Positions 15,005-56,637 of a DNA stretch of 64,000 bases are shown piece after piece. The notes beneath the pieces are model-generated. The model saw nothing but the letters and a program-made list of their open reading frames with translations, ran no database searches and was not told where the DNA came from. Location: assembly GCF_055900595.2 (NCBI RefSeq), contig NZ_CM148325.1; one strand, given 5' to 3'. How positions within the stretch are numbered: the first letter of the stretch is position 1; each line of letters begins with the position of its first letter. The position numbers and the translations under genes are program-made.

Positions 15005-15937
15005 ATGCACTATCTGGGGTTGGATATTGGTGGGACCAAAATCGCCGCCGTCGTCATGGATGCGCATGGCTGGGAGATTCGCCGTTACCGCTGCCCGACG
15101 CAAAAGTCGACATATCAACAATTTGTCTCATGCGTTGTGGCGCTTATCGAGCAGATTAGGCGGGACGTTCAACGACCGATGCTGACAGGGATCGCCTTAC
15201 CCGGCAGTATCTCGCCACTCACTGGCCTGATTAAAAATGCGAATATTCAGGTGATTAACGGTCATGCGTTACAGGCTGATTTGCAGCAATTGCTTGGGCA
15301 ACCGGTGGTGATAGCCAATGATGGTAACTGTTTCGCGCTATCAGAAGCTTGCGACGGTGCCGGGCAAGATTATGATGTGGTATTTGGTATTACGCTTGGC
15401 ACTGGCTGCGGCGGTGGCATTGCCATCAAGCAACGACCGTTTATAGGGGCCTGGGGAAATGCTGCCGAATGCGGTCATATCACGTTGCCAGGCTATACGG
15501 AGCAGGAAGATGGTCCATCAGTCAGTTGCTATTGCGGCAAACACAACTGCGTGGAGTCGTTTGTTTCCGGCAGCGGTTTTAGTGAACGCTATCAACAGAT
15601 GACTGGTAACTTGCTCATTCCTGCGGCGATTGTCACCCTGGCACAACGTGGTGATGCTTGTGCCATGCAGCAGGTGGCACGTTTTCGCCAACAGCTTGCC
15701 CGCACGCTGGCAACCATCGTTAACGTTGTTGACCCTGGCGTGATTGTGATCGGCGGCGGGCTTTCGAATGTGGAACTGCTTATCACCGATCTGAACGCAG
15801 AAGTCGCTCCACTGGTTTTCACCGATCAATTCACCACTCCCATTGTAAAAGCGCAGCACGGCGACAGTAGCGGAATGCGTGGCGCTGCCTGGCTTGCTAT
15901 GCGCAACGGAGAAGCCAATGAAACGCTCACAAATTAA
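15005..15937 (+). CDS. ROK-family sugar kinase
   Basis: Start taken at MHYLGLDIGGTKI (ATP-binding DxGGT motif); Cys-rich zinc motif CYCGKHNC characteristic of ROK kinases. Confidence 0.75.
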   Translation: MHYLGLDIGGTKIAAVVMDAHGWEIRRYRCPTQKSTYQQFVSCVVALIEQIRRDVQRPMLTGIALPGSISPLTGLIKNANIQVINGHALQADLQQLLGQPVVIANDGNCFALSEACDGAGQDYDVVFGITLGTGCGGGIAIKQRPFIGAWGNAAECGHITLPGYTEQEDGPSVSCYCGKHNCVESFVSGSGFSERYQQMTGNLLIPAAIVTLAQRGDACAMQQVARFRQQLARTLATIVNVVDPGVIVIGGGLSNVELLITDLNAEVAPLVFTDQFTTPIVKAQHGDSSGMRGAAWLAMRNGEANETLTN

Positions 15938-16598
15938 TTATGTTATTGATAAAGCACATGCCATTGCGCAGACCTTCCGCGTTTGTTTGCCAGAGTTCGC
16001 CTATTTTACGGTGGATGACTGGCTGCAGCGGGAACGGGATAACTGGCAAGAAGTAGTCGACTTACAGCTCGGTTGGGATATCACCGATTTTGGTCGTGGT
16101 GATTTCAACCAAACGGGACTAACACTGCTAACGATGCGCAACGGCGCGCTGGGGTCGGCGGCATATCCAAAACCGTATGCTGAGAAAATGTTGCAGATCC
16201 AACAAGATCAGCAGACTCCCTGGCATTTTCACACCCACAAAATGGAAGATATCCTCAATCGGGGCGGTGGAGACTTATGCATGCAGTTGGCCTGGGCCAA
16301 CGAAGCCAATCTCTGTGATGATCAACGAGTCATTACCGTGAGTGTTGATGGTCAGCGGCGTACCATGAAACCTGGTGAAACGCTGGTGCTAAAGCCGGGG
16401 CAGGGCATTTGCCTGCCGCCGCGTCTGTATCATCGCTTCTGGGCGGAAAAAGCGTTTGTTCTCGGCTGGGAAATTTCGATGGTAAATGATGACCAACACG
16501 ATAATTATTTTCTTGAGCCGGGAGGACGTTTTCCGGCGATAGAAGAAGATGAACCGGTGAAATGGTTATTGTGCAGTGAGTATGGAATTTTGCGCTAA
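15918..16598 (+). CDS. cupin-superfamily sugar isomerase (D-lyxose/D-mannose isomerase-like)
   Basis: About 226 aa from MKRSQINYV; His-containing cupin motifs (WHFHTHKMEDI); overlaps the end of the kinase gene by about 20 nt, suggesting translational coupling. Confidence 0.6.
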   Translation: MKRSQINYVIDKAHAIAQTFRVCLPEFAYFTVDDWLQRERDNWQEVVDLQLGWDITDFGRGDFNQTGLTLLTMRNGALGSAAYPKPYAEKMLQIQQDQQTPWHFHTHKMEDILNRGGGDLCMQLAWANEANLCDDQRVITVSVDGQRRTMKPGETLVLKPGQGICLPPRLYHRFWAEKAFVLGWEISMVNDDQHDNYFLEPGGRFPAIEEDEPVKWLLCSEYGILR

Positions 16599-32619: not shown

Positions 32620-32690
32620 AAATATGCGCTGCGCAGGTTTTTACTGTGCGCAGCGTGATGCGGTTTAAGATATCGTGTTAATCTGCTTTC

Positions 32691-32883
32691 GCCAGCAGTG
32701 GCAATAGCGTTTCCGGCCTTTTGTGCCGGGAGGGTCGGCGAGTCGCCGACTTAACGCCAGTAGTTTGTCCAGATACCCAAAGTCGCTCCATTGTACTTAA
32801 GTACGCTTCGCGTACGTCGCGCTGACGCGCTCAGTACAGTTACGCGCCTTCGGGATAGTTTGAGGGTATTGCCGCTGTTGGTG
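32691..32883 (+). ncRNA. retron msr-msd region (template/primer RNA for msDNA), bounded by a1/a2 inverted repeats
   Basis: a1 GCCAGCAGTGGCAATAGC (32691-32708) pairs with a2 GGTATTGCCGCTGTTGGT (about 32865-32882) at 17/18 positions when G-U pairs are allowed; internal palindromes (GTACGC-TTC-GCGTAC) fit an msd stem; lies immediately 5' of the RT gene. Confidence 0.6.
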
Positions 32884-32915
32884 CCTCTTTTGGTCGCCGT
32901 GATGTGGAGAGTGGA

Positions 32916-33875
32916 ATGGATGCTACCCGGATAACCCTTCTGGCGCTTGATTTGTTCGGCTCGCCGGGCTGGAGCGCCGATAAAGAAATACAGCGGCTGT
33001 ATGCGCTCAGTAATCATGCCGCACGCCATTACCGACGGATTATTCTTTCTAAGCGTCACGGCGGTCAGCGGGTGGTGTTAGCCCCTGATTACTTGCTCAA
33101 AACCGTACAGCGCAACATTCTTAAGAACGTCCTTTCACAATTCCCTCTTTCCCCTTTTGCTACCGCCTACCGACAGGGTCGCCCAATCGTCAGCAACGCG
33201 CAGCCTCACTGCCAACAGCCGCAGATCCTTAAACTCGATATCGAAAACTTTTTCGATAGCATTAGCTGGTTACAGGTCTGGCGTGTGTTTAGCCAGACCC
33301 AGTTGCCACGCAATGTGGTAACCATGCTGACCTGGCTTTGTTGCTATAACGACGCGTTACCGCAGGGGGCGCCAACTTCGCCTGCCATTTCCAATCTTGT
33401 GATGCGCCGTTTTGATGAGTGCATAGGGGAATGGTGTCAGGCTCGGGGAATTACCTACACCCGCTACTGCGATGACATGACCTTTTCTGGTCACTTCAAT
33501 GCCCGCCAGGTTAAAAATAAAGTATGCGGATTGTTAGCGGAGCTGGGCCTGAGCCTCAATCAACGCAAAAGTTGCCTGATAGCTGCCTGTAAGCGCCAGC
33601 AGGTAACCGGGATTGTTGTTAATCACAAGCCACAGCTTGCCCGTGAAGCGCGCCGGGCGCTGCGTCAGGAAGTACACTTGTGCCAAAAATATGGCGTTAT
33701 TTCGCATCTTAGTCATCGTGGTGAACTTGATCCTTCTGGCGATCTCCACGCACAGGCAACGGCGTATCTTTATGCTTTGCAGGGAAGAATAAACTGGTTA
33801 TTGCAAATCAATCCTGAGGATGAGGCCTTTAAACAGGCGAGGGTGAGTGTAAAGCGAATGCTGGTGGCATGGTAA
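32916..33875 (+). CDS. retron-type reverse transcriptase (Ec107-like, 319 aa)
   Basis: RT motifs LPQGAPTSPAISNL and YTRYCDDMTF (YxDD catalytic box) plus retron-specific VTG motif (QQVTGIVVNHKP); 319 aa if started at MDATRITL; located between pyrE and slmA. Confidence 0.85.
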   Translation: MDATRITLLALDLFGSPGWSADKEIQRLYALSNHAARHYRRIILSKRHGGQRVVLAPDYLLKTVQRNILKNVLSQFPLSPFATAYRQGRPIVSNAQPHCQQPQILKLDIENFFDSISWLQVWRVFSQTQLPRNVVTMLTWLCCYNDALPQGAPTSPAISNLVMRRFDECIGEWCQARGITYTRYCDDMTFSGHFNARQVKNKVCGLLAELGLSLNQRKSCLIAACKRQQVTGIVVNHKPQLAREARRALRQEVHLCQKYGVISHLSHRGELDPSGDLHAQATAYLYALQGRINWLLQINPEDEAFKQARVSVKRMLVAW

Positions 33876-33918
33876 GAAAAGCGTCAGGCAGACGTTTCTG
33901 CCTGAACGTTTGGGAGAA

Positions 33919-40468: not shown

Positions 40469-40819
40469 AGTAAATAGCTGACTTATGGATGTGCTGGGGA
40501 TTCTATGTATTTAGCTGTGGCTTTACCATTACTTTTCCCGTTTTTGACTTAAATAGCAATTTACCCACCAATTCTTGCTGAACATCTATACTTTTTTTGT
40601 ATTTTTATGCGATTCATTGATTTCCGCAGTACGTGCAGTAAGGAATCGCGGAGCAACAGTGAAAGAATATTGTTGCTAATGATTTTATTTGATTGATTTC
40701 TTTATTGAAAAACAACGATGTGCTTAAAAATCATTCGGATCGGATTGCCGCGAAAGAAGTGATACACTAGCGCGTCAATATCAGTACGGTATCAGTATTC
40801 AGGTAGCTGTTGAGCCTGG

Positions 40820-40831
40820 GGCGGTAGCGTG
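40820..40831 (+). promoter_or_regulatory. ops element (GGCGGTAGCGTG) within a JUMPStart-like leader upstream of waaQ; RfaH recruitment site
   Basis: Exact ops core GGCGGTAG-CGTG on the non-template strand about 50 nt upstream of the waaQ start. Confidence 0.7.
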
Positions 40832-40880: not shown

Positions 40881-41939
40881 GTGGATAAGCCATTTCGAAG
40901 AATTTTGCTCATTAAGATGCGTTTTCATGGGGATATGTTATTAACTACTCCTGTCATTAGTTCGCTGAAAAAAAATTACCCTGACGCAAAAATCGATGTG
41001 CTGCTTTATCAGGATACCATCCCGATTCTGTCTGAAAATCCAGAGATTAACGCGCTCTACGGCATAAAAAATAAAAAAGCAAAAGCCTCAGAGAAAATTT
41101 CCAACTTTTTTCATCTCATCAAGGTATTACGTGCCAATAAGTATGACCTTATCGTCAATCTTACCGATCAATGGATGGTTGCTATACTGGTTCGCTTATT
41201 AAATGCCCGTGTGAAAATTTCCCAGGATTATCATCATCGGCAGTCTGCTTTTTGGCGTAAAAGCTTCACCCATCTGGTGCCGTTGCAGGGTGGAAATGTG
41301 GTGGAAAGTAACTTATCCGTGCTGACGCCACTGGGTCTCGAATCGTTGGTGAAGCAGACAACGATGAGTTACCCGCCTGCAAGCTGGAAACGAATGCGTC
41401 GCGAACTGGATCACGCAGGTGTTGGACAAAATTATGTGGTTATCCAACCTACCGCGCGGCAAATCTTCAAATGCTGGGACAACGCCAAGTTTTCCGCTGT
41501 GATTGATGCCTTACATACACGTGGCTATGAAGTCGTTCTGACGTCCGGCCCGGATAAAGACGATCTGGCCTGCGTCAATGAAATTGCGCAGGGATGCCAG
41601 ACGCCACCAGTAACGGCGTTGGCCGGAAAGGTAACCTTCCCGGAACTTGGTGCGTTAATCGATCATGCGCAGCTGTTTATTGGCGTTGATTCCGCACCGG
41701 CGCACATTGCCGCTGCAGTTAATACGCCGCTGATATCGCTGTTTGGTGCAACAGACCATATTTTCTGGCGTCCCTGGTCAAATAACATGATTCAATTCTG
41801 GGCGGGAGATTACCGGGAAATGCCAACACGCGATCAGCGTGACCGAAATGAGATGTATCTTTCGGTTATTCCGGCGGCAGATGTCATTGCTGCTGTTGAT
41901 AAATTATTGCCATCCTCCACGACAGGTACGTCGTTATGA
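40881..41939 (+). CDS. waaQ: LPS heptosyltransferase III (GT9)
   Basis: GT9 heptosyltransferase; first gene of the central waa operon; start uncertain (GTG at 40881 or ATG at MRFHGD). Confidence 0.85.
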   Translation: MDKPFRRILLIKMRFHGDMLLTTPVISSLKKNYPDAKIDVLLYQDTIPILSENPEINALYGIKNKKAKASEKISNFFHLIKVLRANKYDLIVNLTDQWMVAILVRLLNARVKISQDYHHRQSAFWRKSFTHLVPLQGGNVVESNLSVLTPLGLESLVKQTTMSYPPASWKRMRRELDHAGVGQNYVVIQPTARQIFKCWDNAKFSAVIDALHTRGYEVVLTSGPDKDDLACVNEIAQGCQTPPVTALAGKVTFPELGALIDHAQLFIGVDSAPAHIAAAVNTPLISLFGATDHIFWRPWSNNMIQFWAGDYREMPTRDQRDRNEMYLSVIPAADVIAAVDKLLPSSTTGTSL

Positions 41940-43060
41940 TCGTTGCTTTCTGTTTATATAAATATTTTCCCTTTGGCGGTTTGCAACGCGATTTTATGCG
42001 TATTGCTCAGACAGTTGCGGCCCGAGGGCATCATGTTCGGGTTTATGCCCAGTCATGGGAAGGCGAATGCCCTGATGTGTTTGAACTGATCAACGTGCCG
42101 GTTAAGTCGCATACCAATCACGGGCGTAACGCGGAGTATTTTGCCTGGGTGCAAAAACATTTACGCGAGCATCCGGTCGATAAAGTCGTTGGATTCAACA
42201 AAATGCCGGGGCTGGACGTTTATTATGCCGCTGATGTTTGTTATGCCGAGAAAGTGGCGCAGGAGAAAGGCTTTTTCTATCGCCTGACGTCACGTTATCG
42301 CCATTATGCCGCCTTTGAGCGGGCAACCTTTGAACAGGGCAAGCCGACACAGTTGCTGATGCTGACGGACAAGCAAATCGCCGATTTCCAGAAACATTAT
42401 CAGACTGAAGCGGAGCGTTTTCATATTTTGCCTCCGGGGATTTATCCTGACCGTAAATATAGCCAGCAGCCAGCCAATAGCCGTGAAAGCTTTCGTAAGA
42501 AAAATGGAATAACAGAACAACAATATTTATTGTTGCAGGTCGGTTCAGACTTCACGCGTAAAGGTGTCGATCGTTCCATTGAAGCACTTGCTTCGCTCCC
42601 GGATTCACTGCGCCACAACACATTGCTATATGTTGTTGGGCAGGATAAACCGCGAAAATTTGAGGCACTGGCAGAAAAACGCGGCGTGCGCAGTAATGTT
42701 CACTTCTTCTCTGGGCGTAACGATGTCTCGGAATTAATGGCGGCGGCGGATTTATTACTGCATCCTGCCTACCAGGAAGCGGCGGGAATTGTGCTGCTGG
42801 AAGCGATTACTGCAGGATTACCGGTTCTAACAACTGCTGTTTGTGGTTATGCGCATTATATTGTTGACGCGAATTGCGGCGTGGCTATTGCTGAGCCATT
42901 CCGTCAGGAAACATTGAATGAGTTTTTACGCAAAGCGTTAACGCAATCTTCATTGCGCCAGGCCTGGGCGGAAAATGCGCGACATTATGCTGATACACAA
43001 GATTTATACAGTCTGCCAGAGAAAGCGGCGGATATCATAACGGGTGGTCTGGATGGTTGA
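41936..43060 (+). CDS. waaG: LPS core alpha-1,3-glucosyltransferase I (GT4)
   Basis: 374 aa; GT4 family; ATGA overlap with waaQ stop. Confidence 0.9.
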
Positions 43061-43850
43061 ACTGAAAGAGCCGTTTGCCACGTTATGGCGCGGTAAAGAT
43101 CCTTTTGAGGAAGTTAAAACCTTGCAGGGTGAGGTATTTCGTGAACTGGAAACTCGCCGCACTCTGCGCTTTGAAATGGCGGGCAAAAGCTATTTTCTCA
43201 AATGGCATCGCGGCACGACCCTGAAAGAGATAATCAAAAATTTACTCTCATTGCGGATGCCAGTATTAGGTGCAGACCGTGAATGGAATGCGATTCATCG
43301 GCTGCGGGATGTCGGCGTTGATACTATGTATGGGGTGGCATTCGGCGAAAAAGGCATTAATCCGCTGACCAGAACTTCGTTTATTATTACCGAAGATCTG
43401 ACGCCAACTATCAGTCTGGAAGATTACTGTGCTGACTGGGCGACTAACCCACCAGATGTCCGCGTAAAGCGTATGCTTATTAAACGTGTCGCGACGATGG
43501 TGCGCGATATGCATGCTGCGGGCATTAACCACCGTGACTGTTATATCTGTCATTTCCTGCTGCACTTGCCTTTTTCTGGTAGGGAAGATGAGTTAAAAAT
43601 TTCAGTAATTGACCTGCACCGGGCGCAGCTTCGCACGCGCGTTCCACGTCGTTGGCGCGATAAAGATCTTATTGGGCTTTATTTTTCTTCGATGAATATT
43701 GGCCTGACTCAGCGTGATATCTGGCGATTTATGAAGGTATATTTTGCCGTACCGCTTAAAGACATACTCAAGCAGGAACAAGGGCTGCTGTCGCAAGCAG
43801 AAGCAAAAGCCACGAAAATCAGGGAAAGAACGATTAGAAAATCGTTGTAA
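43053..43850 (+). CDS. waaP: LPS core heptose(I) kinase
   Basis: 265 aa from [12 protein letters not shown]; kinase-like motif ([11 protein letters not shown]). Confidence 0.9.
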
Positions 43851-43865: not shown

Positions 43866-44882
43866 ATGAGTGCCCACTATTTTAATCCACAAGAGATGAT
43901 CAATAAGACAATCATCTTCGATGAAAGGCCAGAGGCGTCAGTGGCATCATCATTCCATGTTGCTTATGGCATTGATCAGAACTTTCTTTTTGGTTGTGGT
44001 GTTTCAATCACGTCAGTTTTGTTACATAACAACGACGTGAGTTTTGTCTTCCACGTTTTTATTGATGATATCCCTGACGCCGATATCCAGCGTTTATCCC
44101 AATTGGCGAAAAGCTATCATACCTGTATCCAGATCCATCTGGTAAATTGTGAACGGCTTAAGGTATTACCGACGACCAAAAATTGGTCTATTGCCATGTA
44201 TTTCCGTTTTGTAATTGCAGATTACTTTATTGATCAACAAGATAAGATCCTGTACCTGGATGCTGATATCGCCTGTCAGGGAACCTTAAAACCGCTGATA
44301 ACAATGGATCTTGCCAATAACGTTGCTGCTGTTGTTACTGAACGCGATGCTAACTGGTGGTCGTTACGGGCTCAAAGTCTGCAGTGTAATGAACTTGAAA
44401 AGGGTTACTTTAATTCAGGTGTCCTGTTAATTAATACACTAGCGTGGGCGCAGGAGTCCGTTTCTGCTAAAGCGATGTCGATGCTTGCTGATAAAGCCGT
44501 CGTTTCCCGTTTAACCTATATGGATCAAGATATACTAAATCTTATCCTGTTAGGGAAAGTTAAATTCATTGATGCTAAATACAATACGCAATTTAGTTTA
44601 AATTATGAATTAAAAAAATCATTTATTTGTCCAATTAATGATGAAACCGTATTAATTCATTATGTCGGCCCGACAAAACCTTGGCATTACTGGGCCGGTT
44701 ATCCAAGCGCGCAGCCATTTATCAAAGCCAAAGAAGCATCGCCATGGAAAAATGAACCGTTAATGCGGCCAATTAACTCAAATTATGCTCGTTATTGCGC
44801 TAAGCATAATTTTAAACAAAATAAACCAATTAACGGGATAATGAATTATATTTATTATTTTTATTTAAAGATAATAAAATGA
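43866..44882 (+). CDS. waaO: LPS outer-core alpha-glycosyltransferase, GT8 family (WaaO/WaaI-like)
   Basis: 338 aa; GT8 DxD motif YLDADIACQG; AT-rich. Confidence 0.7.
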   Translation: MSAHYFNPQEMINKTIIFDERPEASVASSFHVAYGIDQNFLFGCGVSITSVLLHNNDVSFVFHVFIDDIPDADIQRLSQLAKSYHTCIQIHLVNCERLKVLPTTKNWSIAMYFRFVIADYFIDQQDKILYLDADIACQGTLKPLITMDLANNVAAVVTERDANWWSLRAQSLQCNELEKGYFNSGVLLINTLAWAQESVSAKAMSMLADKAVVSRLTYMDQDILNLILLGKVKFIDAKYNTQFSLNYELKKSFICPINDETVLIHYVGPTKPWHYWAGYPSAQPFIKAKEASPWKNEPLMRPINSNYARYCAKHNFKQNKPINGIMNYIYYFYLKIIK

Positions 44883-44898
44883 CATTGAGAAAAGTTAA

Positions 44899-45894
44899 AT
44901 GAATGAATTTATAAAAGAACGGTTTTCGTATTTAGCAGATAATAAAAAAGAAAACGTCCCAGAGCTAAATGTTTCCTACGGTATCGATAAGAATTTTTTG
45001 TATGGTGCTGGCGTTTCAATTTCTTCCGTTTTGATTAATAATTCAGATATTAATTTTGTCTTTCATGTTTTCACTGATTATGTGGATGATGATTATTTAA
45101 AGTCATTTGATGAAACAGCAAAACAATTTAATACCTCAATTATTGTATATTTAATTGACCCAAAATACTTTGCTGATCTGCCGACGTCACAGTTTTGGTC
45201 GTACGCGACATACTTCAGGGTATTGTCCTTTGAATATCTGAGTGAAAGTATTTCCACACTGCTGTATCTGGATGCCGATGTCGTTTGTAAAGGAAGTCTG
45301 AAACCTCTCACAAAAATTATATTTAAAGATGAGTTTGCTGCGGTTATTCCTGACAATGATAGTACTCAGGCGGCATGTGCAAAACGTCTTAACATTCCCG
45401 AAATGAATGGACGTTATTTCAATGCAGGCGTTATCTATGTCAATCTTAAAAAATGGCATGAAGCAAATTTGACACCGTATTTACTCACGCTTTTACGAGG
45501 GGAAACTAAATATGGCTCTCTTAAATATTTAGATCAGGATGCGTTGAATATCGCATTTAATATGAATAATATCTACCTCGCGAAGGATTTTGATACTATT
45601 TATACCCTGAAAAACGAACTTCATGATCGTAGTCATCGAAAGTATCAGCAAACCATTACCGATAAAACAGTATTGATTCACTATACAGGGATAACTAAAC
45701 CATGGCATAGCTGGGCTGGATATCCGTCTGCATCATACTTTAATATCGCGCGTGAACAATCTCCCTGGAAGAAATATCCTCTTAAAGAGGCGCGGACTGT
45801 TGCAGAAATGCAGAAACAATATAAGCATCTGTTTGCCCATGGTGAGTATATAAAAGGCATAACTTCATTAATTAAGTACAAGCTTAAGAAATAA
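44899..45894 (+). CDS. LPS outer-core alpha-glycosyltransferase, GT8 family (WaaT-like position)
   Basis: 331 aa; GT8 motif YLDADVVCKG; position between waaO and waaY as in R1/R4 core loci. Confidence 0.6.
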   Translation: MNEFIKERFSYLADNKKENVPELNVSYGIDKNFLYGAGVSISSVLINNSDINFVFHVFTDYVDDDYLKSFDETAKQFNTSIIVYLIDPKYFADLPTSQFWSYATYFRVLSFEYLSESISTLLYLDADVVCKGSLKPLTKIIFKDEFAAVIPDNDSTQAACAKRLNIPEMNGRYFNAGVIYVNLKKWHEANLTPYLLTLLRGETKYGSLKYLDQDALNIAFNMNNIYLAKDFDTIYTLKNELHDRSHRKYQQTITDKTVLIHYTGITKPWHSWAGYPSASYFNIAREQSPWKKYPLKEARTVAEMQKQYKHLFAHGEYIKGITSLIKYKLKK

Positions 45895-45903
45895 ATTACT
45901 CTT

Positions 45904-46596
45904 ATGATTACAAGTATACGTTATCGCGGCTTCTCATTTTATTACAAAGATAATGATAATAAATATAAAGAAATCTTTGATGAAATACTGGCCTATAATT
46001 TTAAAACAGTAAAAGTATTACGTAATATTGATGATACCAAAGTATCGTTGATTGATACGAAATATGGTCGCTATGTTTTTAAAGTCTTTGCTCCGAAAAC
46101 GAAAAGGAATGAACGTTTTTTAAAATCTTTTGTAAAAGGTGACTACTATCAGAATTTGATCGTTGAAACCGATCGTGTCAGAAGTGCAGGTCTTACTTTT
46201 CCTAATGATTTTTATTTTCTGGCTGAGCGTAAAATTTTCAACTATGCCAGTGTTTTTATCATGCTTATCGAGTATGTCGAGGGCGTAGAGCTCAATGATA
46301 TGCCGATTATTCCAGAAAATGTTAAAGCAGAAATTAAGGCTTCAATGGAAAAATTGCATGCCTTAAATATGCTATCGGGCGACCCACACCGGGGTAACTT
46401 TATCGTTAGTAAAGATGGTGTCAGGATAATTGACCTATCCGGTAAAAGCTGTACGGCAGAGCGTAAAGCTCGTGATCGTCTGGCCATGGAACGTCACCTG
46501 GGTATTGCCAACGAAATAAAAGATTATGGCTACTATTCAGTAATCTACAGAACCAAACTACGCAAATTTATTAAAAAATTAAAAGGCAAAGCGTAA
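45904..46596 (+). CDS. waaY: LPS core heptose(II) kinase
   Basis: 230 aa; small kinase-like protein with DPHRGNF motif. Confidence 0.75.
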   Translation: MITSIRYRGFSFYYKDNDNKYKEIFDEILAYNFKTVKVLRNIDDTKVSLIDTKYGRYVFKVFAPKTKRNERFLKSFVKGDYYQNLIVETDRVRSAGLTFPNDFYFLAERKIFNYASVFIMLIEYVEGVELNDMPIIPENVKAEIKASMEKLHALNMLSGDPHRGNFIVSKDGVRIIDLSGKSCTAERKARDRLAMERHLGIANEIKDYGYYSVIYRTKLRKFIKKLKGKA

Positions 46597-46621
46597 ACCA
46601 CACAGTCAAAACGGAACCAAC

Positions 46622-47650
46622 ATGGATTTATTAGCTGAGAGTATTACTGAAGTCGCTGTCTCTGGGGAAATTGCTAACACCGATCGTGTGTTAAATATCG
46701 CTTACGGTATTGACCGTAATTTTTTATTTGGTGCGGCAGTATCTATGCAATCAGTTGTTATGCATAACCCAGACCTTGCGGTTAAGTTTCATCTCTTTAC
46801 CGACTACATTGATGAAGATTATCTACAACGTGTTAACGCTTTTACCAGCAAAAATGCTAACGTTGAAGTAAGAATTTATAAAGTCTCCAGTGTCTTTATT
46901 GATATCTTCCCCAGCCTGAAACAGTGGTCTTATGCAACATTCTTCCGTTTAGTTGCGTTCCAGTATCTGAGTGAAACTATTGAAAATCTGTTATATATCG
47001 ATGCTGATGTCATCTGTAAAGGCTCATTAGCTGGATTGCTTGATATTAATTTTGATGGCGATAAATTCGCAGCTGTTATTAAAGATGTGCCTTTTATGCA
47101 GGAAAAACCAGCGAAGCGTCTGGCTATAGAGGGGCTTCCAGGGAATTATTTCAACGCCGGTGTAGTATATCTGCAGCTTGAAGCGTGGGCGAAAAATGAT
47201 TTTATGAATAAAGCCATTGCTATGCTGGCAAGTGACCCGCAGCACACGAAGTATAAATGCCTTGATCAGGATATTTTAAATATTCTGTTCTTTGGTCATT
47301 GTATTTTTATTAGCGGCGATTATGATTGCTTTTATGGCATTGACTATGAGTTAAAAAATAAAAGCGATGAAGATTATAAAAAGACCATTACCGATGATAC
47401 TAAGCTGATTCATTATGTTGGCGTAACGAAGCCCTGGAACGACTGGACGAATTATCCCTGCCAGAAGTATTTTAATGAGGCTTATCAAGCTTCTTGCTGG
47501 AATGATGTGGCGTTTATTCCAGCCACGAATGAAAAACAGTATCAAGTGAAATCCAGACATTTGAAAAGAAATGGTAATATTGCATCTTCATTTTACTATT
47601 TCATGCTCTATTATAGTAAGAAAATAGCGCGTAAGCATTTTTCCAAATAA
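46622..47650 (+). CDS. LPS outer-core alpha-glycosyltransferase, GT8 family (WaaW-like position)
   Basis: 342 aa; GT8 motif YIDADVICKG. Confidence 0.6.
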   Translation: MDLLAESITEVAVSGEIANTDRVLNIAYGIDRNFLFGAAVSMQSVVMHNPDLAVKFHLFTDYIDEDYLQRVNAFTSKNANVEVRIYKVSSVFIDIFPSLKQWSYATFFRLVAFQYLSETIENLLYIDADVICKGSLAGLLDINFDGDKFAAVIKDVPFMQEKPAKRLAIEGLPGNYFNAGVVYLQLEAWAKNDFMNKAIAMLASDPQHTKYKCLDQDILNILFFGHCIFISGDYDCFYGIDYELKNKSDEDYKKTITDDTKLIHYVGVTKPWNDWTNYPCQKYFNEAYQASCWNDVAFIPATNEKQYQVKSRHLKRNGNIASSFYYFMLYYSKKIARKHFSK

Positions 47651-47681
47651 TTATTAAGACTAATCATCCAGGGATTTTTTA

Positions 47682-48455
47682 ATGAACTTGCCCATTTATA
47701 TTGTCTCACTTAAAAGAGATATTGAGCGAAGAAATAAAATAAATGATGTCTTTCATCGATTAAACATTAATTTTGATTTTTTTGATGCCATAGATGCTAA
47801 AGATCCTCAAAATAAAGAAATTATTAATGAAATGAGATTAAGTGGTGTCGGCGCAGAAATGACTGATGGAGAAATTGCTTGTACGTTAAGTCATCAGCTT
47901 ATATATCAGGATATGATAGATAAAAATATAGAATGGGCAGTCATTCTAGAGGACGATGTTATCGTCAATGAGAAATTTAAAAATTTCCTTCAATACTTTA
48001 ATCCTTCTGAAAAAGACAAGTTAAAATATAATAATTTGTATTTGCTTGGAGGTCAGAAAGGATTACATGATTATCCAGTATTGGGGCAAAGCCTTTTTAG
48101 TAAAGTTAAGGTAAGTACTTGTATTTTTCGTCGTGTTAATTTTAATAAAAATAAAATTCGTCGTACATGTTCATATTTGATGAATAACGATATGGCACTA
48201 AAGTTGCTCAAATTGACAAAGGATTATGGCACCTATCGAGCTGATAGCTGGAAGTTAATGCATCAACATAATATTATAAAAGATTTTTATTTAGACGAAA
48301 TAATATTACATCCTATTTTAAATGAGTTTAATAGTCACCTTGAAAGTGAAAGGCTTTTAATATCGGAAAAAAAACAACCCAGGACAAGGCTTCAGAAAAA
48401 AATGAAGTTTATACGTTCCTGGATAAAGGTGGCTTTTTTTTCTCTTTTGAAATGA
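47682..48455 (+). CDS. LPS outer-core beta-glycosyltransferase, GT25 family (WaaV/WaaX-like)
   Basis: 257 aa; GT25 (Lic2A/LgtB-like) N-terminal pattern IYIVSLKRDIERRNKI...FFDAID. Confidence 0.55.
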   Translation: MNLPIYIVSLKRDIERRNKINDVFHRLNINFDFFDAIDAKDPQNKEIINEMRLSGVGAEMTDGEIACTLSHQLIYQDMIDKNIEWAVILEDDVIVNEKFKNFLQYFNPSEKDKLKYNNLYLLGGQKGLHDYPVLGQSLFSKVKVSTCIFRRVNFNKNKIRRTCSYLMNNDMALKLLKLTKDYGTYRADSWKLMHQHNIIKDFYLDEIILHPILNEFNSHLESERLLISEKKQPRTRLQKKMKFIRSWIKVAFFSLLK

Positions 48456-48489
48456 GATTGTTAATTTCAATTTATTGTGAGATATTAAC

Positions 48490-49743
48490 GTGGAAGTAAA
48501 AATTGAGCAATTTCGAAATAATAGCTGTAATTTTATTTTTTTATTATATTTAATCGGTTTGTTGTTTGTGCCAATTGATCTAAATATTACCACTAAAATA
48601 ATTAATGCTACAGGTGCATTTTCTCTTTTTTTATTAATTGTAAATAACAAGCATAATTATAATAAAAATATCATTATATTAATTCTTGGCTTACTTCTTT
48701 TGGGTGCAATGAACCTGATATGGTATGAGTTTTATAAAACAGAAGATGTAGTATATAGAAATGCTTATCGAGGCTATCTTGAGTCTGGAAAACTATTAGT
48801 ATTTAGCTCGTTGACATTTTTATTACTAAGTAAAAATAAATTCAGGCAAAATGAAAAGCTACATTTTATTTCAGCTATCTTAGTTCAAATAATCATGCTA
48901 TGTAGAGCATATTATCAAGGGATATATTTGCATGCAGACCGCATTCCCCTCTCCGCCATGAATGGGAATATTGGTCAGATGGGGGCAGCGACTATTGCGG
49001 CTTATGTGATTACATTCACTACTTTATATTCTTCAATTGTATTCATCAAAATGCAATCGAAATATAAATGGTTTCTATTTTATGCTAACTTTGCTTTAAG
49101 CTTTGCAGCAGTAATGATGACAGGAACGCGTGCGGCAATTTTCACATTCCCACTTATGATTATGGTCATATTATTTCTTCAGCATCGTGATCAAAAAGTG
49201 TTTTTATTTAAAGGATTGAGTGGTGTTTTTATATTGCTACTTGCTTGTGGTTTGATATTTAATAAGGAAATTGAGAGGCGAATTAATTCATTAAAAGCTG
49301 ATGTTATTTCATATGCTACAAAAAATAACAGTCAATCCTCGGTCGGAGCACGTTTTGCAATGGTTAATGCAGGAATTAAAGGAAGTCCTGATGGTTTTAA
49401 TTGGCAATCTCTTGAGCAGCGTGCTGAAAAGATAAAAGCATTAAGTGCAGAAAATAATATTTATAGTGGAGCTTTATTATTCCTTGATGTACATATGCAT
49501 AATGAAATTGTTGAAGCTCTTTCCACGAAAGGGAAAATTGGTCTTCTTGTTCTTATTATGTTCTATGTTGCAATGATCTACTACTGTATCCGGGAGAAAA
49601 AATATATACTTTTGGTTTTCCCTGCTTCTATTATGTTATTTGGCATTAGTGATGTCATTACGCATGCTAAACCAATACCGGCATCGTGGATTGTGTGCCT
49701 CTTCCTGTCTATATCGTTTTTGAGTAAAAAAGAACCACAATAA
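48490..49743 (+). CDS. waaL: O-antigen ligase (start codon uncertain)
   Basis: 417 aa, very hydrophobic polytopic protein with large periplasmic loop; last gene of outer-core operon; AT-rich. Confidence 0.75.
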   Translation: MEVKIEQFRNNSCNFIFLLYLIGLLFVPIDLNITTKIINATGAFSLFLLIVNNKHNYNKNIIILILGLLLLGAMNLIWYEFYKTEDVVYRNAYRGYLESGKLLVFSSLTFLLLSKNKFRQNEKLHFISAILVQIIMLCRAYYQGIYLHADRIPLSAMNGNIGQMGAATIAAYVITFTTLYSSIVFIKMQSKYKWFLFYANFALSFAAVMMTGTRAAIFTFPLMIMVILFLQHRDQKVFLFKGLSGVFILLLACGLIFNKEIERRINSLKADVISYATKNNSQSSVGARFAMVNAGIKGSPDGFNWQSLEQRAEKIKALSAENNIYSGALLFLDVHMHNEIVEALSTKGKIGLLVLIMFYVAMIYYCIREKKYILLVFPASIMLFGISDVITHAKPIPASWIVCLFLSISFLSKKEPQ

Positions 49744-49790
49744 TAAAAACGTTGATTAAGTAAGTGGGTATAATGCCCACTTACTATTTA

Positions 49791-50750
49791 TTAAATCAAT
49801 GTAATTTCTTTATAAACAGCCGCTGCTTCTAAATTATTTAAACTCTTTAGCGGAGCCCTACAAACCATCTGATTCTTCCCATACCCGCCAATTAATCCCG
49901 GATCGGTTGGCCCATAAACCGTGATATTGGGTCTATCCAGTGCCGCCGTTAAATGGCTTAACCCCGTATCCACCGACACCACAAATTTAGCCCCCGCCAG
50001 CACACAAGCAACGCCTTCCAGACTCATCTTCGGCAATACGTCGACATAATCAAATCCTTCCGCCAGTCTTTTTGCCCGCTCTTCTTCATGCGGCGCGCCC
50101 CACGGAAGTTTAATGCGAATCCCTGAATCTGCCAGTAAACCAATCAACTCTCGCCAGTGTGCTTCCGGCCAGTGTTTATCATCACGGGTTGTTGCATGAA
50201 GAAATACGGCATATTCGCCAGCATCTGTCGGCAGGTTCGTCAGGAAATGCTGCGCAATGGCATAATCGCCCTGAGTCTGCGGTTTGCTGTAACCCAGACT
50301 TTTGGCAAACAGTTCGCGGGTGCGTTCTACGGCGTGCTGCTGTTTTGCAATATGATGCTTACGATTGTAAAACAGGCTGGCTAAGGGTTCGCGAGCGGTT
50401 TGCCAGTCCATTCCATGCTTTACGCCATGCGCCAGACGCGTCACCAGCGCCGCGCTTTTTACCAGCCCCTGAGCGTCGATAATTGCGTCATAGTTCTCTG
50501 CTTGTAGCGCTTCACGAAACGCTTTCCGTTCAGCTTTTATGGGGGCCGAGAACCAGGCTTTACGCCAGCGACGTATTGCCACAGGAATAACTCGCTCAAC
50601 GGCAGCGTGCCAGGAAGGAATCTGTGCGAACCCTTCTTCCACCACCCAGTCAAACTTAATCCCTGGGATTGCCTGCTGGGCATCAGTGAGTGCGGGCAGC
50701 GTATGGAGAACATCGCCCATCGACGATGTTTTAACGATCAGAACCCGCAT
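49791..50750 (-). CDS. waaC: LPS heptosyltransferase I
   Basis: 319 aa GT9; hldD-waaF-waaC operon. Confidence 0.9.
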   Translation of the reverse strand: MRVLIVKTSSMGDVLHTLPALTDAQQAIPGIKFDWVVEEGFAQIPSWHAAVERVIPVAIRRWRKAWFSAPIKAERKAFREALQAENYDAIIDAQGLVKSAALVTRLAHGVKHGMDWQTAREPLASLFYNRKHHIAKQQHAVERTRELFAKSLGYSKPQTQGDYAIAQHFLTNLPTDAGEYAVFLHATTRDDKHWPEAHWRELIGLLADSGIRIKLPWGAPHEEERAKRLAEGFDYVDVLPKMSLEGVACVLAGAKFVVSVDTGLSHLTAALDRPNITVYGPTDPGLIGGYGKNQMVCRAPLKSLNNLEAAAVYKEITLI

Positions 50751-50753
50751 CCG

Positions 50754-51800
50754 TCAGGCTTCCTCTTGTAACAATAGCGCGTTGAGTTCTTCCAGTACGC
50801 GCTGGGGAGTAATGTCGATCAAGCTCTGGTGATAACCCTCCGCAGCGTCACCTTTACGCACTTTGTGATAGCCGGTAATCAGGCGGATCACGCGCGCTTT
50901 ATGGGATAGTGGCGGTGTGAAGTCCGGGCTACTCGGACCATACAGGGCAACCAGCGGACGATTGAGCGCCGCCGCAACGTGCATCAGGCCAGAATCGTTA
51001 GTGACAATGGCTTTACAGGCTGCAATCAGGATAACCGCTTGATCAAGCTGTGTTTCCCCCGCCAGGTTCCGGCACCATGCCTGCTGCTCGGTATTCAAAG
51101 CGGCAAGAATCTCATTGCCCGCTTCATGATCTTTCGCCGAGCCAAACAGAACCACCTGATAACCTTCATCAATCAGCTGCTTTGCCAGCTCCGCATAGTG
51201 GTAGTGTGGCCAGCGTTTTGCCGGACCAAACTCCGCTCCGGGGCAAAAGCCAATCATCGGACGTTCTGATGAGAGCGAAAATTGATTACAGGTATATGAT
51301 TTTTCACCTTCGCTCACCTGCAACTGCGGCCATAACAATGGCTGCGGCAGATCTTGTGCGGTACGCATAATGCCTTTGTCATAGGCTAGCGCGACATAGC
51401 GTTCCACCATTAGCGGCCAGGCTTCTTTATCGAGCACGCGTACATCGTTAAGTAAACCGTAGCGCATCTCGCCGCGCCAGCCGGTGCGATGAGGAATACC
51501 CGCGAAGAAAGGCACTAATGCGGACTTGAAGGAGTTGGGTAAGACGTAGGCGCGGTCGTAGCGCTTTTCACGCAGACTATGACCCAGTTTGCGGCGTTCG
51601 CCGATTTCCAGCGCTCCGTGACCGAGAGGCATAGGGATAGCTTCGTTAACTTCCGGCATCCGCGATAACAATGGACGGCACCATGCCGGTGCCATCACGT
51701 CGATTATCGCCTGGGGATAGCGCGCCTGGAGCGTGCGATAGAGACTTTGCGACATCATCATGTCGCCAACCCAAGACGGGCCGATCACCAGTATTTTCAT
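50754..51800 (-). CDS. waaF: LPS heptosyltransferase II
   Basis: 348 aa GT9. Confidence 0.9.
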   Translation of the reverse strand: MKILVIGPSWVGDMMMSQSLYRTLQARYPQAIIDVMAPAWCRPLLSRMPEVNEAIPMPLGHGALEIGERRKLGHSLREKRYDRAYVLPNSFKSALVPFFAGIPHRTGWRGEMRYGLLNDVRVLDKEAWPLMVERYVALAYDKGIMRTAQDLPQPLLWPQLQVSEGEKSYTCNQFSLSSERPMIGFCPGAEFGPAKRWPHYHYAELAKQLIDEGYQVVLFGSAKDHEAGNEILAALNTEQQAWCRNLAGETQLDQAVILIAACKAIVTNDSGLMHVAAALNRPLVALYGPSSPDFTPPLSHKARVIRLITGYHKVRKGDAAEGYHQSLIDITPQRVLEELNALLLQEEA

Positions 51801-52955: not shown

Positions 52956-54152
52956 ATGCGTGGAGAATTTTATCAGCAGTTAACCAACGATCTGGAAACC
53001 GCAAGGGCGGAAGGGTTGTTTAAAGAAGAGCGCATTATTACGTCTGCGCAACAAGCAGACATCACTGTGGCTGATGGAAGCCACGTCATTAACTTTTGTG
53101 CCAATAACTATCTCGGACTGGCGAATCATCCGGATCTGATTGCGGCGGCAAAGGCGGGAATGGATTCTCACGGTTTCGGCATGGCTTCGGTGCGTTTTAT
53201 TTGCGGCACTCAGGACAGCCATAAAGAGCTTGAACAAAAACTGGCGGCCTTCCTGGGGATGGAAGATGCGATTCTCTACTCTTCCTGCTTTGATGCTAAC
53301 GGTGGCCTGTTTGAAACGCTGCTGGGCGCGGAAGACGCCATTATCTCCGACGCACTGAACCACGCGTCTATTATTGATGGTGTGCGTCTGTGCAAAGCTA
53401 AACGCTATCGTTATGCCAACAACGATATGCAGGAGCTGGAAGCACGTCTGAAAGAAGCGCGTGAAGCCGGTGCGCGTCATATGCTGATTGCCACCGATGG
53501 TGTGTTCTCAATGGACGGCGTGATTGCCAACCTGAAAGGTGTTTGCGATCTCGCCGATAAATACGATGCGCTGGTGATGGTGGATGACTCTCACGCGGTC
53601 GGTTTTGTCGGTGAAAACGGTCGTGGCTCCCATGAATACTGCGATGTGATGGGCCGGGTCGATATTATCACCGGCACGCTCGGTAAAGCGCTGGGTGGCG
53701 CTTCTGGTGGTTATACCGCGGCGCGCAAAGAAGTGGTTGAGTGGCTGCGCCAGCGTTCTCGTCCGTACCTGTTCTCCAACTCGTTGGCACCGGCCATTGT
53801 TGCCGCTTCCATCAAAGTGCTGGAGATGGTTGAAGCGGGTAGCGAGCTGCGTGACCGTCTGTGGGCGAACGCGCGTCAGTTCCGTGAGCAAATGTCGGCG
53901 GCGGGCTTTACCCTGGCGGGTGCCGATCACGCCATTATTCCGGTCATGCTTGGCGATGCTGTAGTGGCGCAAAAATTTGCACGTGAACTGCAAAAAGAGG
54001 GCATTTACGTCACCGGTTTCTTCTATCCGGTCGTTCCTAAAGGTCAGGCGCGTATTCGTACCCAGATGTCTGCGGCGCATACCCCTGAGCAAATTACGCG
54101 TGCGGTAGAAGCGTTCACGCGTATTGGTAAACAACTGGGCGTAATCGCCTGA
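52956..54152 (+). CDS. kbl: 2-amino-3-ketobutyrate CoA ligase (glycine C-acetyltransferase)
   Basis: 398 aa PLP-dependent class II aminotransferase family. Confidence 0.95.
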
Positions 54153-54165
54153 GTGAGGATGTGAG

Positions 54166-55191
54166 ATGAAAGCGTTATCCAAACTGAAAGCGGAAGAGGG
54201 CATCTGGATGACCGACGTTCCTGAACCGGAACTCGGACATAACGATCTGCTGATTAAAATCCGTAAAACAGCCATCTGCGGGACTGACGTTCACATCTAT
54301 AACTGGGATGAGTGGTCGCAAAAAACCATCCCAGTACCGATGGTTGTAGGCCATGAATATGTCGGTGAGGTGGTTGGCATCGGTCAGGAAGTGAAAGGCT
54401 TCAAGATCGGCGATCGCGTTTCTGGCGAAGGCCATATCACTTGTGGTCATTGCCGCAACTGTCGTGGTGGCCGTACCCATTTGTGCCGCAACACGATAGG
54501 CGTTGGTGTTAATCGCCCGGGCTGCTTCGCCGAATATCTGGTGATCCCGGCATTCAACGCCTTCAAAATCCCCGACAATATCTCCGATGACTTAGCCGCA
54601 ATTTTCGACCCGTTCGGTAACGCCGTGCATACCGCGCTGTCGTTTGATCTGGTGGGCGAGGATGTGCTGGTCTCTGGTGCAGGCCCGATTGGTATTATGG
54701 CGGCGGCGGTGGCGAAACACGTTGGTGCACGTAACGTGGTGATTACTGATGTTAACGAATACCGCCTTGAGTTGGCGCGTAAAATGGGTATCACCCGTGC
54801 GGTTAACGTCGCTAAAGAGAACCTCAATGATGTGATGGCAGAACTGGGCATGACCGAAGGCTTTGATGTTGGTCTGGAAATGTCCGGTGCGCCGCCAGCG
54901 TTTCGTACAATGCTCGACACCATGAACCACGGCGGTCGCATTGCGATGCTGGGTATTCCGCCGTCTGATATGTCTATCGACTGGACCAAAGTGATCTTTA
55001 AGGGCTTGTTCATTAAAGGTATTTACGGTCGTGAGATGTTTGAAACCTGGTACAAGATGGCGGCGCTGATTCAGTCTGGCCTCGATCTCTCGCCGATCAT
55101 TACCCATCGTTTCTCTATCGATGATTTCCAGAAGGGCTTTGACGCTATGCGTTCGGGCCAGTCCGGGAAAGTTATTCTGAGCTGGGATTAA
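54166..55191 (+). CDS. tdh: L-threonine 3-dehydrogenase
   Basis: 341 aa zinc-dependent MDR dehydrogenase (GHEYVGEV, Cys-rich structural zinc site). Confidence 0.95.
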
Positions 55192-55243
55192 CACGAACAA
55201 GGGCTGGAATACCAGCCCTTGAAGCTGATGGCAAACACAAAAT

Positions 55244-55343
<100 letters not shown>

Positions 55344-55602
55344 TAAACAAAGCGCACTTGGTCTACAATCTGAAAATCCAAAATACCAGCCCTTTTCCCT
55401 GAGGATAATCTGTTAAATATGTAAAATCCTGTCAGTGTAATAAAGAGTTCGTAATTGCGCTGATCTCTTATATAGCTGTTCTCATTATCTCTCTACCCTG
55501 AAGTGACTCTCTCACCTGTAAAAATAATATCTCACAGGCTTAATGGTTTCTTAATACAAAGCCTGTAAAACATCAGGATAACTTCAGAGGTCGTCGGTAT
55601 TT

Positions 55603-56637
55603 ATGATGAACAGCACCAATAAACTCAGTGTTATTATCCCGTTATATAATGCGGGAGATGATTTCCGTACTTGCATGGAATCTTTAATCGCGCAAACCTG
55701 GACTGCTCTGGAAATCATTATTATTAACGATGGTTCAACGGATAATTCTGTTGAAATAGCAAAGCATTACGCGGAAATCTATCCGCACGTTCGTTTGCTG
55801 CATCAGGCGAATGCTGGCGCATCGGTAGCGCGTAATCGTGGGATCGAGGCAGCGACGGGTAAATATGTCGCTTTTGTCGATGCTGATGATGAGGTCTATC
55901 CCACCATGTACGAAACGCTGGTGACGATGGCCGAGCAGGACAACCTTGACGTGGCGCAGTGCAACGCTGACTGGTGTTTTCGTGAAACGGGAGAAACCTG
56001 GCAGTCCATCCCCACCGATCGCCTTCGCTCAACCGGCGTATTAACCGGCCCGGACTGGCTGCGAATGGGGCTTTCTTCCCGCCGTTGGACTCATGTTGTC
56101 TGGATGGGCATTTATCGTCGTGATGTCATTGCTAAAAATAACATTAAATTTATTGCCGGATTACATCATCAGGATATTGTCTGGACAACAGAATTTATGT
56201 TTAACGCGCAACGCGTGCGATATACCGAGCAATCGTTATATAAATATTATTTGCATAATACGTCAGTGAGCCGATTGAATAGACAGGGAAATAAAAACCT
56301 TAATTATCAACGCCACTATATTAAGATTACCCGACTGTTGGAAAAGTTAAATCGCGATTACGCAGACAGAATAGTGATTTACCCGGAATTTCATCAACAA
56401 ATAACTTACGAAGCATTACGTGTTTGCCATGCGGTACGTAAAGAGCCAGATATTATTACCCGCCAACGGATGATTGCTGAGATATTTACTTCCGGTATGT
56501 ATAAGCGCCTGATTTCCAATGTACGCAGCATAAAGGTGGGTTATCAGGCGTTACTGTGGTCTTTCCGCTTATGGCAATGGCGCGACAAAACGCGGTCGCA
56601 CCATCGCATTACGCGTAGCGCCTTTAATTTGCGCTAG
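55603..56637 (+). CDS. waaH: GT2-family LPS glycosyltransferase WaaH (YibD)
   Basis: 344 aa; GT2 motifs SVIIPLYN and DADD. Confidence 0.8.
   Translation: MMNSTNKLSVIIPLYNAGDDFRTCMESLIAQTWTALEIIIINDGSTDNSVEIAKHYAEIYPHVRLLHQANAGASVARNRGIEAATGKYVAFVDADDEVYPTMYETLVTMAEQDNLDVAQCNADWCFRETGETWQSIPTDRLRSTGVLTGPDWLRMGLSSRRWTHVVWMGIYRRDVIAKNNIKFIAGLHHQDIVWTTEFMFNAQRVRYTEQSLYKYYLHNTSVSRLNRQGNKNLNYQRHYIKITRLLEKLNRDYADRIVIYPEFHQQITYEALRVCHAVRKEPDIITRQRMIAEIFTSGMYKRLISNVRSIKVGYQALLWSFRLWQWRDKTRSHHRITRSAFNLR

Follow-up and report, generated by a model that had tools for sequence, protein, structure and literature searches.

The R4 outer-core locus of Escherichia coli lipopolysaccharide (LPS) was reportedly sequenced and functionally dissected by Heinrichs and co-workers in 1998. 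In the R4 waaQ operon, with strain F2513 as prototype, the GT25 gene waaX precedes waaL, and the published R4 typing amplicon measures 380 bp. The locus described here, located in a stretch of 64,000 nucleotides (the window), has the same gene order and no structural difference from this prototype, its copy being a minority allele. The R1 waaQ operon (prototype F470, represented here by strain HS) has the same architecture with waaL in last position and 94-99% nucleotide identity over the first seven genes, but it harbours waaV, encoding a GT2 beta-glucosyltransferase (327 aa; beta-1,3), in place of the GT25 waaX of the window (257 aa), and also differs at the 3' ends of waaW and waaC and in its WaaL. 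With respect to enzyme family, WaaX resembles Haemophilus Lic2A and Neisseria LgtB/LgtE, which are GT25 beta-1,4-galactosyltransferases of LPS or LOS, and the protein of structure 8xc8; all are PF01755 proteins with an N-terminal Rossmann-like domain bearing an EDD motif. The relationship with 8xc8 is distant (E=2e-12, N-terminal 100 residues only) and, unlike that of Lic2A and LgtB/LgtE, the WaaX acceptor would be the enterobacterial outer-core glucose.

Gene content and order of the central operon

Six intact + strand genes, waaO-waaT-waaY-waaW-GT25-waaL, fill positions 43866-49743 (the block) 3' of waaQ-waaG-waaP in the ORF map, and the RefSeq annotation, whose annotated locus is 100% identical over the block, is concordant gene for gene. 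The ORF map and family matches together give a central operon of nine intact genes on one strand in the order waaQ-waaG-waaP-waaO-waaT-waaY-waaW-waaX-waaL, within which none of waaS, waaB, waaZ, waaU, waaK, waaD and waaJ was found. The initial annotation had described three GT8 genes, waaY, a GT25 gene and waaL on one strand after waaQ-waaG-waaP, and the ORF coordinates match this description exactly; its statement that waaL is terminal and that waaS, waaB and waaZ are missing is borne out by the same map. The features are as follows.

40793..40831, + strand: JUMPstart element with ops GGCGGTAG (40820-40827) in the waaQ leader; Rfam RF01707, 55.2 bits (gathering score 35), E=6e-10
40881..41939, + strand: waaQ, heptosyltransferase III, opening the central operon; NCBIfam NF007742 RfaQ, E=3e-215, and RefSeq annotation
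41936..43060, + strand: waaG, GT4 alpha-1,3-glucosyltransferase (GlcI); RefSeq annotation, 97.6% aa identity to HS WaaG
43053..43850, + strand: waaP, heptose I kinase; NCBIfam NF011703 RfaP, E=9e-145 (annotated start 43053, longest-ORF start 43044)
43866..44882, + strand: waaO, putative GT8 alpha-1,3-glucosyltransferase (GlcII), 338 aa; NCBIfam NF011718, 610.8 bits (cut-off 461), 95.9% aa identity to R1 WaaO
44899..45894, + strand: waaT, putative GT8 alpha-1,2-galactosyltransferase (GalI), 331 aa; GT8, E=1e-89, 98.8% aa identity to the R1 protein
45904..46596, + strand: waaY, heptose II kinase, 230 aa; NCBIfam NF007684 RfaY, E=1e-120
46622..47650, + strand: waaW, putative GT8 alpha-1,2-galactosyltransferase (GalII), 342 aa; GT8, E=2e-82
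47682..48455, + strand: waaX, putative GT25 beta-galactosyltransferase defining the R4 core, 257 aa; Pfam PF01755, E=4.9e-50, UniRef 'Beta-1,4-galactosyltransferase'
48490..49743, + strand: waaL, O-antigen ligase of putative R4 type, 417 aa; Pfam Wzy_C, E=7e-8
47580..49850, + strand: R4-specific cassette, running from the waaW 3' end through waaX and waaL to the waaC 3' end, the only part of the locus that lacks nucleotide similarity to the R1 locus
49759..49785, unstranded: hairpin with a 12-bp stem, candidate bidirectional terminator by terminator consensus match only

The three proteins of about 335 aa all match PRK15171 (GT8 LPS alpha-hexosyltransferase), with E values of 6e-184 for WaaO, 1e-89 for WaaT and 2e-82 for WaaW, and the GT8 motifs of WaaO lie at residues 132 (DAD) and 220 (DQD). 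Cluster names for waaT include 'UDP-glucose/galactose:(glucosyl)LPS alpha-1,2-glucosyl/galactosyltransferase', and a member of the waaW cluster is named 'UDP-galactose:(galactosyl) LPS alpha1,2-galactosyltransferase WaaW'. The families of WaaX and WaaL were assigned with Pfam, NCBIfam having no model for either. The EDD motif of WaaX, at residues 90-92, aligns with that of the solved GT25 structure 8xc8, and residues R214, R288 and H335/H337 of WaaL are unchanged in an alignment of four divergent WaaL proteins. The sugar specificities given for WaaO, WaaT, WaaW and WaaX are predictions transferred from orthologues.

Upstream of the operon, the ops/JUMPstart element of the waaQ leader is the expected, predicted loading site of the antiterminator RfaH, and a promoter scan of the sequence gave sigma-70-like sites at a level not above that of shuffled sequence (28 vs 30.6 expected). 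At the other end, waaL and waaC are convergent and separated by a gap of 47 bp, in which the candidate terminator hairpin sits.

Assignment of the R4 core type

In-silico typing PCR was performed with the primers of Trofimova et al. 2025 (PMC13293308), allowing at most 2 mismatches and using HS as R1 control. Primers R1R4-R (47491-47510) and R4-F (47852-47870) bind opposite strands with 0 mismatches and delimit a product of exactly 380 bp, the published size of the R4 waaW-waaX product (PMC13293308), while the HS control gives the published R1 size of 842 bp (waaW-waaV). The R1, R2, R3 and K-12 typing primers have no site in the window within 2 mismatches. The initial annotation, which had proposed the core-type PCR, read the locus as R1 or R4 rather than K-12 and named a K-12, R2 or R3 match as the result that would speak against it; no such match is seen, the O157:H7 strain sharing only 50 bp of the block (one R3-type genome listed, its type taken from the literature), and the choice it left is settled in favour of R4 by the Pfam GT25 assignment and the 380-bp amplicon. 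It was mistaken in considering the 257-aa GT25 protein as possibly 'WaaV-like', WaaV being a 327-aa GT2 protein at the equivalent R1 position. Since WaaV belongs to GT2, the GT25 identity of the 257-aa protein already decides for R4; the protein encoded at 47682-48455 shows 17% aa identity with R1 WaaV and corresponds to WaaX.

The R1 and R4 loci were also compared along their length. Alignments by blastn between the window and E. coli HS are found at 46001-47579 and 49851-51500 only; similarity stops at 47579, so that the 3'-terminal 71 nt of waaW form part of the R4-specific segment. The window WaaL is clearly distinct from the R1 allele, with which it shares 33.5% aa identity, and occurs with waaX in 690 genomes; Leclercq et al. 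2021 used an R4-specific waaL allele as their criterion for typing. An R1-type core set could be argued for from the 93-99.6% aa identity of WaaO, WaaT, WaaY and WaaW to their counterparts in HS and from R1 being the most frequent core type, but the window has a GT25 gene where R1 has the GT2 waaV, the R1-F primer site is absent with the R4 amplicon exact, and 47580-49850 does not align with the R1 locus at the nucleotide level. The R1 reading was consequently ruled out, its probability being practically nil. The core type is resolved as R4, not R1, and the block almost certainly represents the half of the central waaQ operon that encodes the outer core in an E. coli strain of R4 LPS core type.

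The distribution in the population agrees with this assignment. Among 5,426 complete E. coli genomes, 690 (12.7%) carry the full block and about 1,840 (34%), including the R1 control HS, share waaO-waaW alone, a split that agrees with the frequencies of R4 (12.3%) and R1 (35.4%, the commonest type) in the literature. In BL21, which belongs to the partial-match class, an IS1 lies within the block.

The cassette itself is found in 690-692 of the 5,426 genomes, of which 11 (Z0117EC0005 and E400634 among them) carry it at 99% identity or more, 605 at 95-99% and 78 at 90-95%; the window copy is 96-98.5% identical to that of most R4 genomes and represents a minority allele. Its rarity, a patch of about 5% nucleotide divergence within waaX (47800-48200) and the 10-12 substitutions separating its WaaX from the common R4 WaaX alleles (95-96% aa identity) could be taken as signs of lineage-specific waaX/waaL alleles producing an altered R4-like core, with a different donor sugar, linkage or O-antigen attachment preference. 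However, WaaX retains every column invariant among five homologues (down to 66% identity), EDD included, its substitutions, for the most part conservative (K/R, D/N), fall in variable columns, all invariant WaaL residues are kept, and 95-96% identity is the normal allelic range for the waa locus. Such a sub-variant core is therefore judged very improbable, and the locus is treated as a standard R4 locus.

Base composition and exchange of the outer-core block

The G+C content of the block is 34.6% compared with 50.8% elsewhere in the window, as the initial annotation had described, with values of 29.8% for waaX and 32.1% for waaL beside 51-55% for waaC, waaF and waaD. A recent import of the block from a donor of low G+C that does not belong to the Enterobacteriaceae would fit this 16-point drop, which is abrupt at both edges, as well as the typical occurrence of GT25 enzymes in Haemophilus and Neisseria, both genera of low G+C. 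Against this, the nearest non-Escherichia homologues of WaaX are all from Enterobacterales and lie at the corresponding waa locus of the chromosome, where a G+C of 30-35% adjoins flanks of 50-55%, and the full nine-gene order is also present in Citrobacter amalonaticus and Leminorella. Homologues of equal locus, order and low G+C within the Enterobacterales imply a composition maintained over a long time instead of the signature of a fresh import, which makes recent import from such a donor highly unlikely. Low G+C is documented for all five core types (PMC8715443), and the outer-core block of the homologous C. amalonaticus locus, which has the same order, is likewise AT-rich (30-35% G+C); consequently, base composition is no proof of recent import, and the low G+C of the block is an old, conserved property.

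Divergence is more informative on exchange between lineages. Relative to mainstream E. coli, divergence amounts to 3.0-4.6% in the flanks of the block and to 0.9-1.9% in the outer-core block itself, a contrast significant by Fisher test (p=4e-20 to 4e-6). The E. coli background that carries the locus is rare and deep-branching; identity of at least 99% over 56800-62000 is found in only 10 of 5,424 genomes. Stronger constraint on the block was considered as the cause of its low divergence and was rejected, because two mainstream R4 strains differ in the block (1.4-2.5%) as much as, or more than, in the flanks (1.2-2.5%). The initial annotation had regarded AT-richness as consistent with horizontal exchange; composition alone is weak evidence for it, whereas the exchange itself is backed, and better shown, by the discordant divergence, an independent test. 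The block would move among E. coli lineages through homologous recombination in the conserved flanks.

R4-ordered loci in other genera, core assembly and significance

Outside Escherichia, the closest WaaX proteins are those of Cedecea (70%), Pluralibacter (67%), Citrobacter (66%) and Leclercia (64%), and waaX and waaL are adjacent in 5 of 5 other genera, the upstream genes being variable. The waa loci of C. amalonaticus and Leminorella grimontii have the nine-gene order of the window, closed by the GT25-WaaL pair, and are undetectable at the nucleotide level. The outer-core proteins of C. amalonaticus are 63-85% aa identical to those of the window (66% for WaaX), and the Leminorella WaaX is 61% identical. 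On the basis of this shared order, the GT25-WaaL adjacency in all five genera and the block being 2-4 times less divergent than the flanks between the rare lineage and mainstream strains, it may tentatively be proposed that the R4 order, and the waaX-waaL pair in particular, is an ancient Enterobacterales cassette and not an acquisition specific to E. coli, kept AT-rich and polymorphic under long-term balancing selection by phage or immunity and recombined across deep Escherichia lineages; this is regarded as possible, at somewhat less than even chances.

The products of the operon would act in the R4 pathway that PMC13293308 and PMC3526765 summarise from Heinrichs et al. 1998 (J Biol Chem 273:29497). 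RfaH loaded at ops would carry transcription across the long AT-rich operon. On the cytoplasmic side of the inner membrane, WaaG would place GlcI on HepII, after which WaaO would attach GlcII (alpha-1,3), WaaT GalI (alpha-1,2) and WaaW GalII (alpha-1,2), with HepI and HepII phosphorylated by WaaP and WaaY and HepIII added by WaaQ. WaaX, as an inverting GT25 enzyme using UDP-galactose, would provide the beta-galactose side branch that sets R4 apart from R1; secondary sources conflict on its linkage, given as beta-1,4 (PMC13293308) or as beta-1,3 on GlcII (PMC3526765). Once the molecule is flipped by MsbA, the putative R4-type WaaL would ligate undecaprenyl-PP-linked O-antigen or ECA to the finished core, presumably at or beside the beta-Gal branch.

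The R4 locus is already known and adds no new biology in itself. The core type governs phage adsorption, the O-antigen attachment site and the cross-reaction of anti-core antibodies and vaccines, which makes a firm R4 assignment useful as strain metadata. The analysis also yields two mildly useful by-products: a clean example of the outer-core module being exchanged between mainstream E. coli and a lineage that branches deeply, and the observation, at the protein level, that R4-ordered loci exist in other enterobacterial genera. According to PMC8715443, the variable central region lacks homologues beyond Escherichia and Shigella, a statement that would be revised if the proposed ancient Enterobacterales origin of the cassette is true.

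Gene content and core type of the outer-core block

The ORF map of the central waaQ operon reproduced exactly the coordinates proposed by the initial annotation after waaQ-waaG-waaP. The arrangement described there (three GT8 genes, waaY, a GT25 gene and waaL on one strand) was borne out by NCBIfam, Pfam and RefSeq annotation, the latter from the locus of E. coli strain E400634, which is 100% identical across the block (43866-49743) and whose gene annotation agrees. Beyond waaL, the ORF map places waaC, waaF and waaD in convergent orientation.

Genes of the central waaQ operon
40881-41939, +, waaQ (ORF map; NCBIfam RfaQ above curated cut-off)
41936-43060, +, waaG (ORF map)
ends at 43850, +, waaP (ORF map; NCBIfam RfaP above curated cut-off)
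43866-44882, +, waaO, 338 aa (NCBIfam GT8 LPS alpha-hexosyltransferase model)
44899-45894, +, waaT, 331 aa (same GT8 model)
45904-46596, +, waaY, 230 aa (NCBIfam RfaY above curated cut-off)
46622-47650, +, waaW, 342 aa (same GT8 model)
47682-48455, +, waaX, 257 aa (Pfam Glyco_transf_25, E=4.9e-50)
48490-49743, +, waaL, 417 aa (Pfam Wzy_C)

Four independent lines (gene family, primers, population and names) establish that the core type is R4, narrowing the earlier R1-or-R4 call. In the R1 control strain HS, waaW and waaL are separated by a gene for a 327-aa GT2 glycosyltransferase with 17% identity to the window GT25 protein; WaaL is only 33.5% identical between the two, and WaaO, WaaT, WaaY and WaaW are 93-99.6% identical. 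With a GT2 enzyme at the diagnostic position in HS, the choice posed initially between a WaaV-like and a WaaX-like GT25 is no real dilemma, and membership in GT25 therefore already identifies WaaX. The core-type PCR was simulated in silico using the nine-primer set of Trofimova et al. 2025 (PMC13293308), whereby the shared waaW primer (47491-47510) and, on the opposite strand, the waaX-specific R4-F primer (47852-47870) each matched with 0 mismatches and delimited a 380 bp product, the exact published R4 size. This was the only product, the R1, R2, R3 and K-12 primers having no site in the window even at 2 mismatches, while the HS control typed as R1 with its published 842 bp product. The whole block was found in 690 of 5,426 complete E. 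coli genomes (12.7%) and its first 3.7 kb only in about 1,840 (34%), in agreement with published shares of 12.3% for R4 and 35.4% for R1; BL21, HS and KO11FL belong to the partial-match class, BL21 with IS1 inside the block. UniRef lists the exact WaaX sequence as 'Beta-1,4-galactosyltransferase', and for the neighbouring proteins other cluster members bear the names of the WaaW and WaaT/R functions. An ISKpn26 insertion was seen within the R4 block of strain OkiPb01710.

The blastn alignment against the HS locus ends at 47579 and resumes at 49851, so the type-specific cassette spans 47580-49850, taking in the final 71 nt of waaW, all of waaX and waaL, an intergenic hairpin and the final 60 nt of waaC. 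Because the waaC 3' end is included, WaaC has 319 aa here versus 323 aa in HS. Of 695 matches to the cassette in the E. coli genome collection, three are on plasmid-labelled records and may stem from misassembly or from a truly mobilised copy.

Regulatory elements, catalytic motifs and proposed pathway

A JUMPstart element with the ops octamer within it was located by Rfam at 40793-40831, upstream of waaQ; such elements are a hallmark of long operons dependent on RfaH. Between waaL and waaC, a candidate hairpin with a 12-bp stem (49759-49785) is a consensus match only. All three GT8 proteins keep the HY.G.TKPW box along with DAD and DQD motifs. WaaX has an intact EDD motif, which aligns with that of the solved GT25 structure 8xc8, and WaaL residues R214, R288 and H335/H337 do not vary among four WaaL proteins with identities as low as 35%.

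Following the established pathway, the nine-gene operon would be transcribed with RfaH assistance, and the core would be assembled stepwise in the cytoplasm by WaaG (GlcI), WaaO (GlcII), WaaT (GalI) and WaaW (GalII), with WaaP, WaaQ and WaaY decorating the inner core and WaaX putting on the beta-Gal side branch, Und-PP-linked polymers then being ligated by WaaL in the periplasm. The R4 attachment site is assumed to be the beta-Gal branch (PMC7504096); the WaaX linkage is given as beta-1,4 (PMC13293308) and, in disagreement, as beta-1,3 on GlcII (PMC3526765).

Chromosomal background and other features of the window

In the housekeeping stretch 56800-62000, identity of at least 99% was found in only 10 of 5,424 genomes, sampled others standing at 96.3-96.8%. 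These comparisons indicate a lineage that is rare and branches deeply, and that may be a cryptic Escherichia clade. The background, for example 53200-62000, shows 3-4.5% divergence from nearly every complete E. coli genome, and waaH, in this divergent background, reaches only ~91% identity in one bin of 500 bp.

A putative retron insertion (32620-33918) separates pyrE from slmA and carries a reverse transcriptase gene (32916-33875, +, 319 aa; PADLOC RT_Ec107-like retron model, E=7e-133) with no adjoining effector gene, and upstream of the gene an inverted repeat of 15 nt, with its halves at 32692-32706 and 32867-32881, resembles msr-msd a1/a2 arms; the insertion is absent in MLI106K1 and present in CFSAN061771. 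Window 1-5357 differs from E400634, the remainder matching apart from a handful of mismatches. At this left end, the genes next to tRNA-Sec (5267-5357, -) are a SetB-like sugar efflux gene, a DMT transporter, nlpA, yicS and one for a type III secretion chaperone of the SicA/LcrH family (282-779, -); at selC, E400634 instead carries an island with an integrase. The cluster at 9655-16598, between yicI and yicH, contains a BglG-type antiterminator, fructose-family PTS IIA/IIB/IIC, two aldolases, a ROK kinase and a lyxose/mannose isomerase, as read only from the annotation of the E400634 record, whose sequence has few mismatches to the window there. In the tdh-waaH intergenic region (55221-55382), ~160 bp missing from two mainstream comparator strains are edged by an imperfect 19-nt inverted repeat; this segment is part of a repeat scattered through intergenic regions, with a median of 33 matches in each E. 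coli genome, and so resembles a MITE- or ERIC-like element.

Base composition, relatives and exchange of the module

The AT-rich character first noted for the block was confirmed, with 34.6% G+C versus 50.8% in the remainder of the window. Values are 35-38% for waaO-waaW, 29.8% for waaX and 32.1% for waaL, intermediate for waaQGP (47-48%) and 51-55% for waaC, waaF and waaD. The variable central region is low in G+C for all five core types, and it has been claimed to have no homologue beyond Escherichia and Shigella (PMC8715443). The nine-gene R4 order of the waaQ operon was found in Citrobacter amalonaticus (2180-11065 of the Citrobacter sequence, WaaX 66% identical, outer-core proteins 63-85% identical at the amino acid level) and in Leminorella grimontii (183-9080 of the Leminorella sequence, WaaX 61% identical). 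Since the C. amalonaticus locus combines this order with 30-35% G+C between flanks of 50-55%, and the nearest non-Escherichia WaaX homologues (49-70% identity) all belong to Enterobacterales, the low G+C of the block is, on these sequence comparisons, old and maintained; no recent donor of the block is visible among those homologues. In 5/5 other genera examined (Cedecea, C. amalonaticus, a Pluralibacter-type contig, L. grimontii and Shimwellia blattae), a GT25 gene lies directly 5' of the ligase gene with varying upstream genes, a context that supports a functional link between WaaX and WaaL.

Composition alone did not hold as the sign of horizontal exchange proposed initially, but exchange itself was supported by the divergence test. 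In comparisons with three mainstream strains, divergence is 2.9-4.6% in the flanks and only 0.9-1.9% in waaO-waaW; for the R4 cassette it is 1.4% relative to strain CFSAN061771 (Fisher p between 4e-20 and 4e-6 for the block versus flank contrast). Constraint on the block as the cause of its low divergence was rejected because the block evolves no slower than the flanks when two mainstream R4 strains are compared with each other. The discordance supports exchange of the outer-core module between the deep lineage and mainstream E. coli after the lineages split.

The locus itself is a textbook R4 waa locus, already known. Slightly beyond the cited literature are the R4-ordered loci and the waaX-waaL pair, recognized at the protein level in other enterobacterial genera, and the discordant divergence of block and flanks in a rare lineage.
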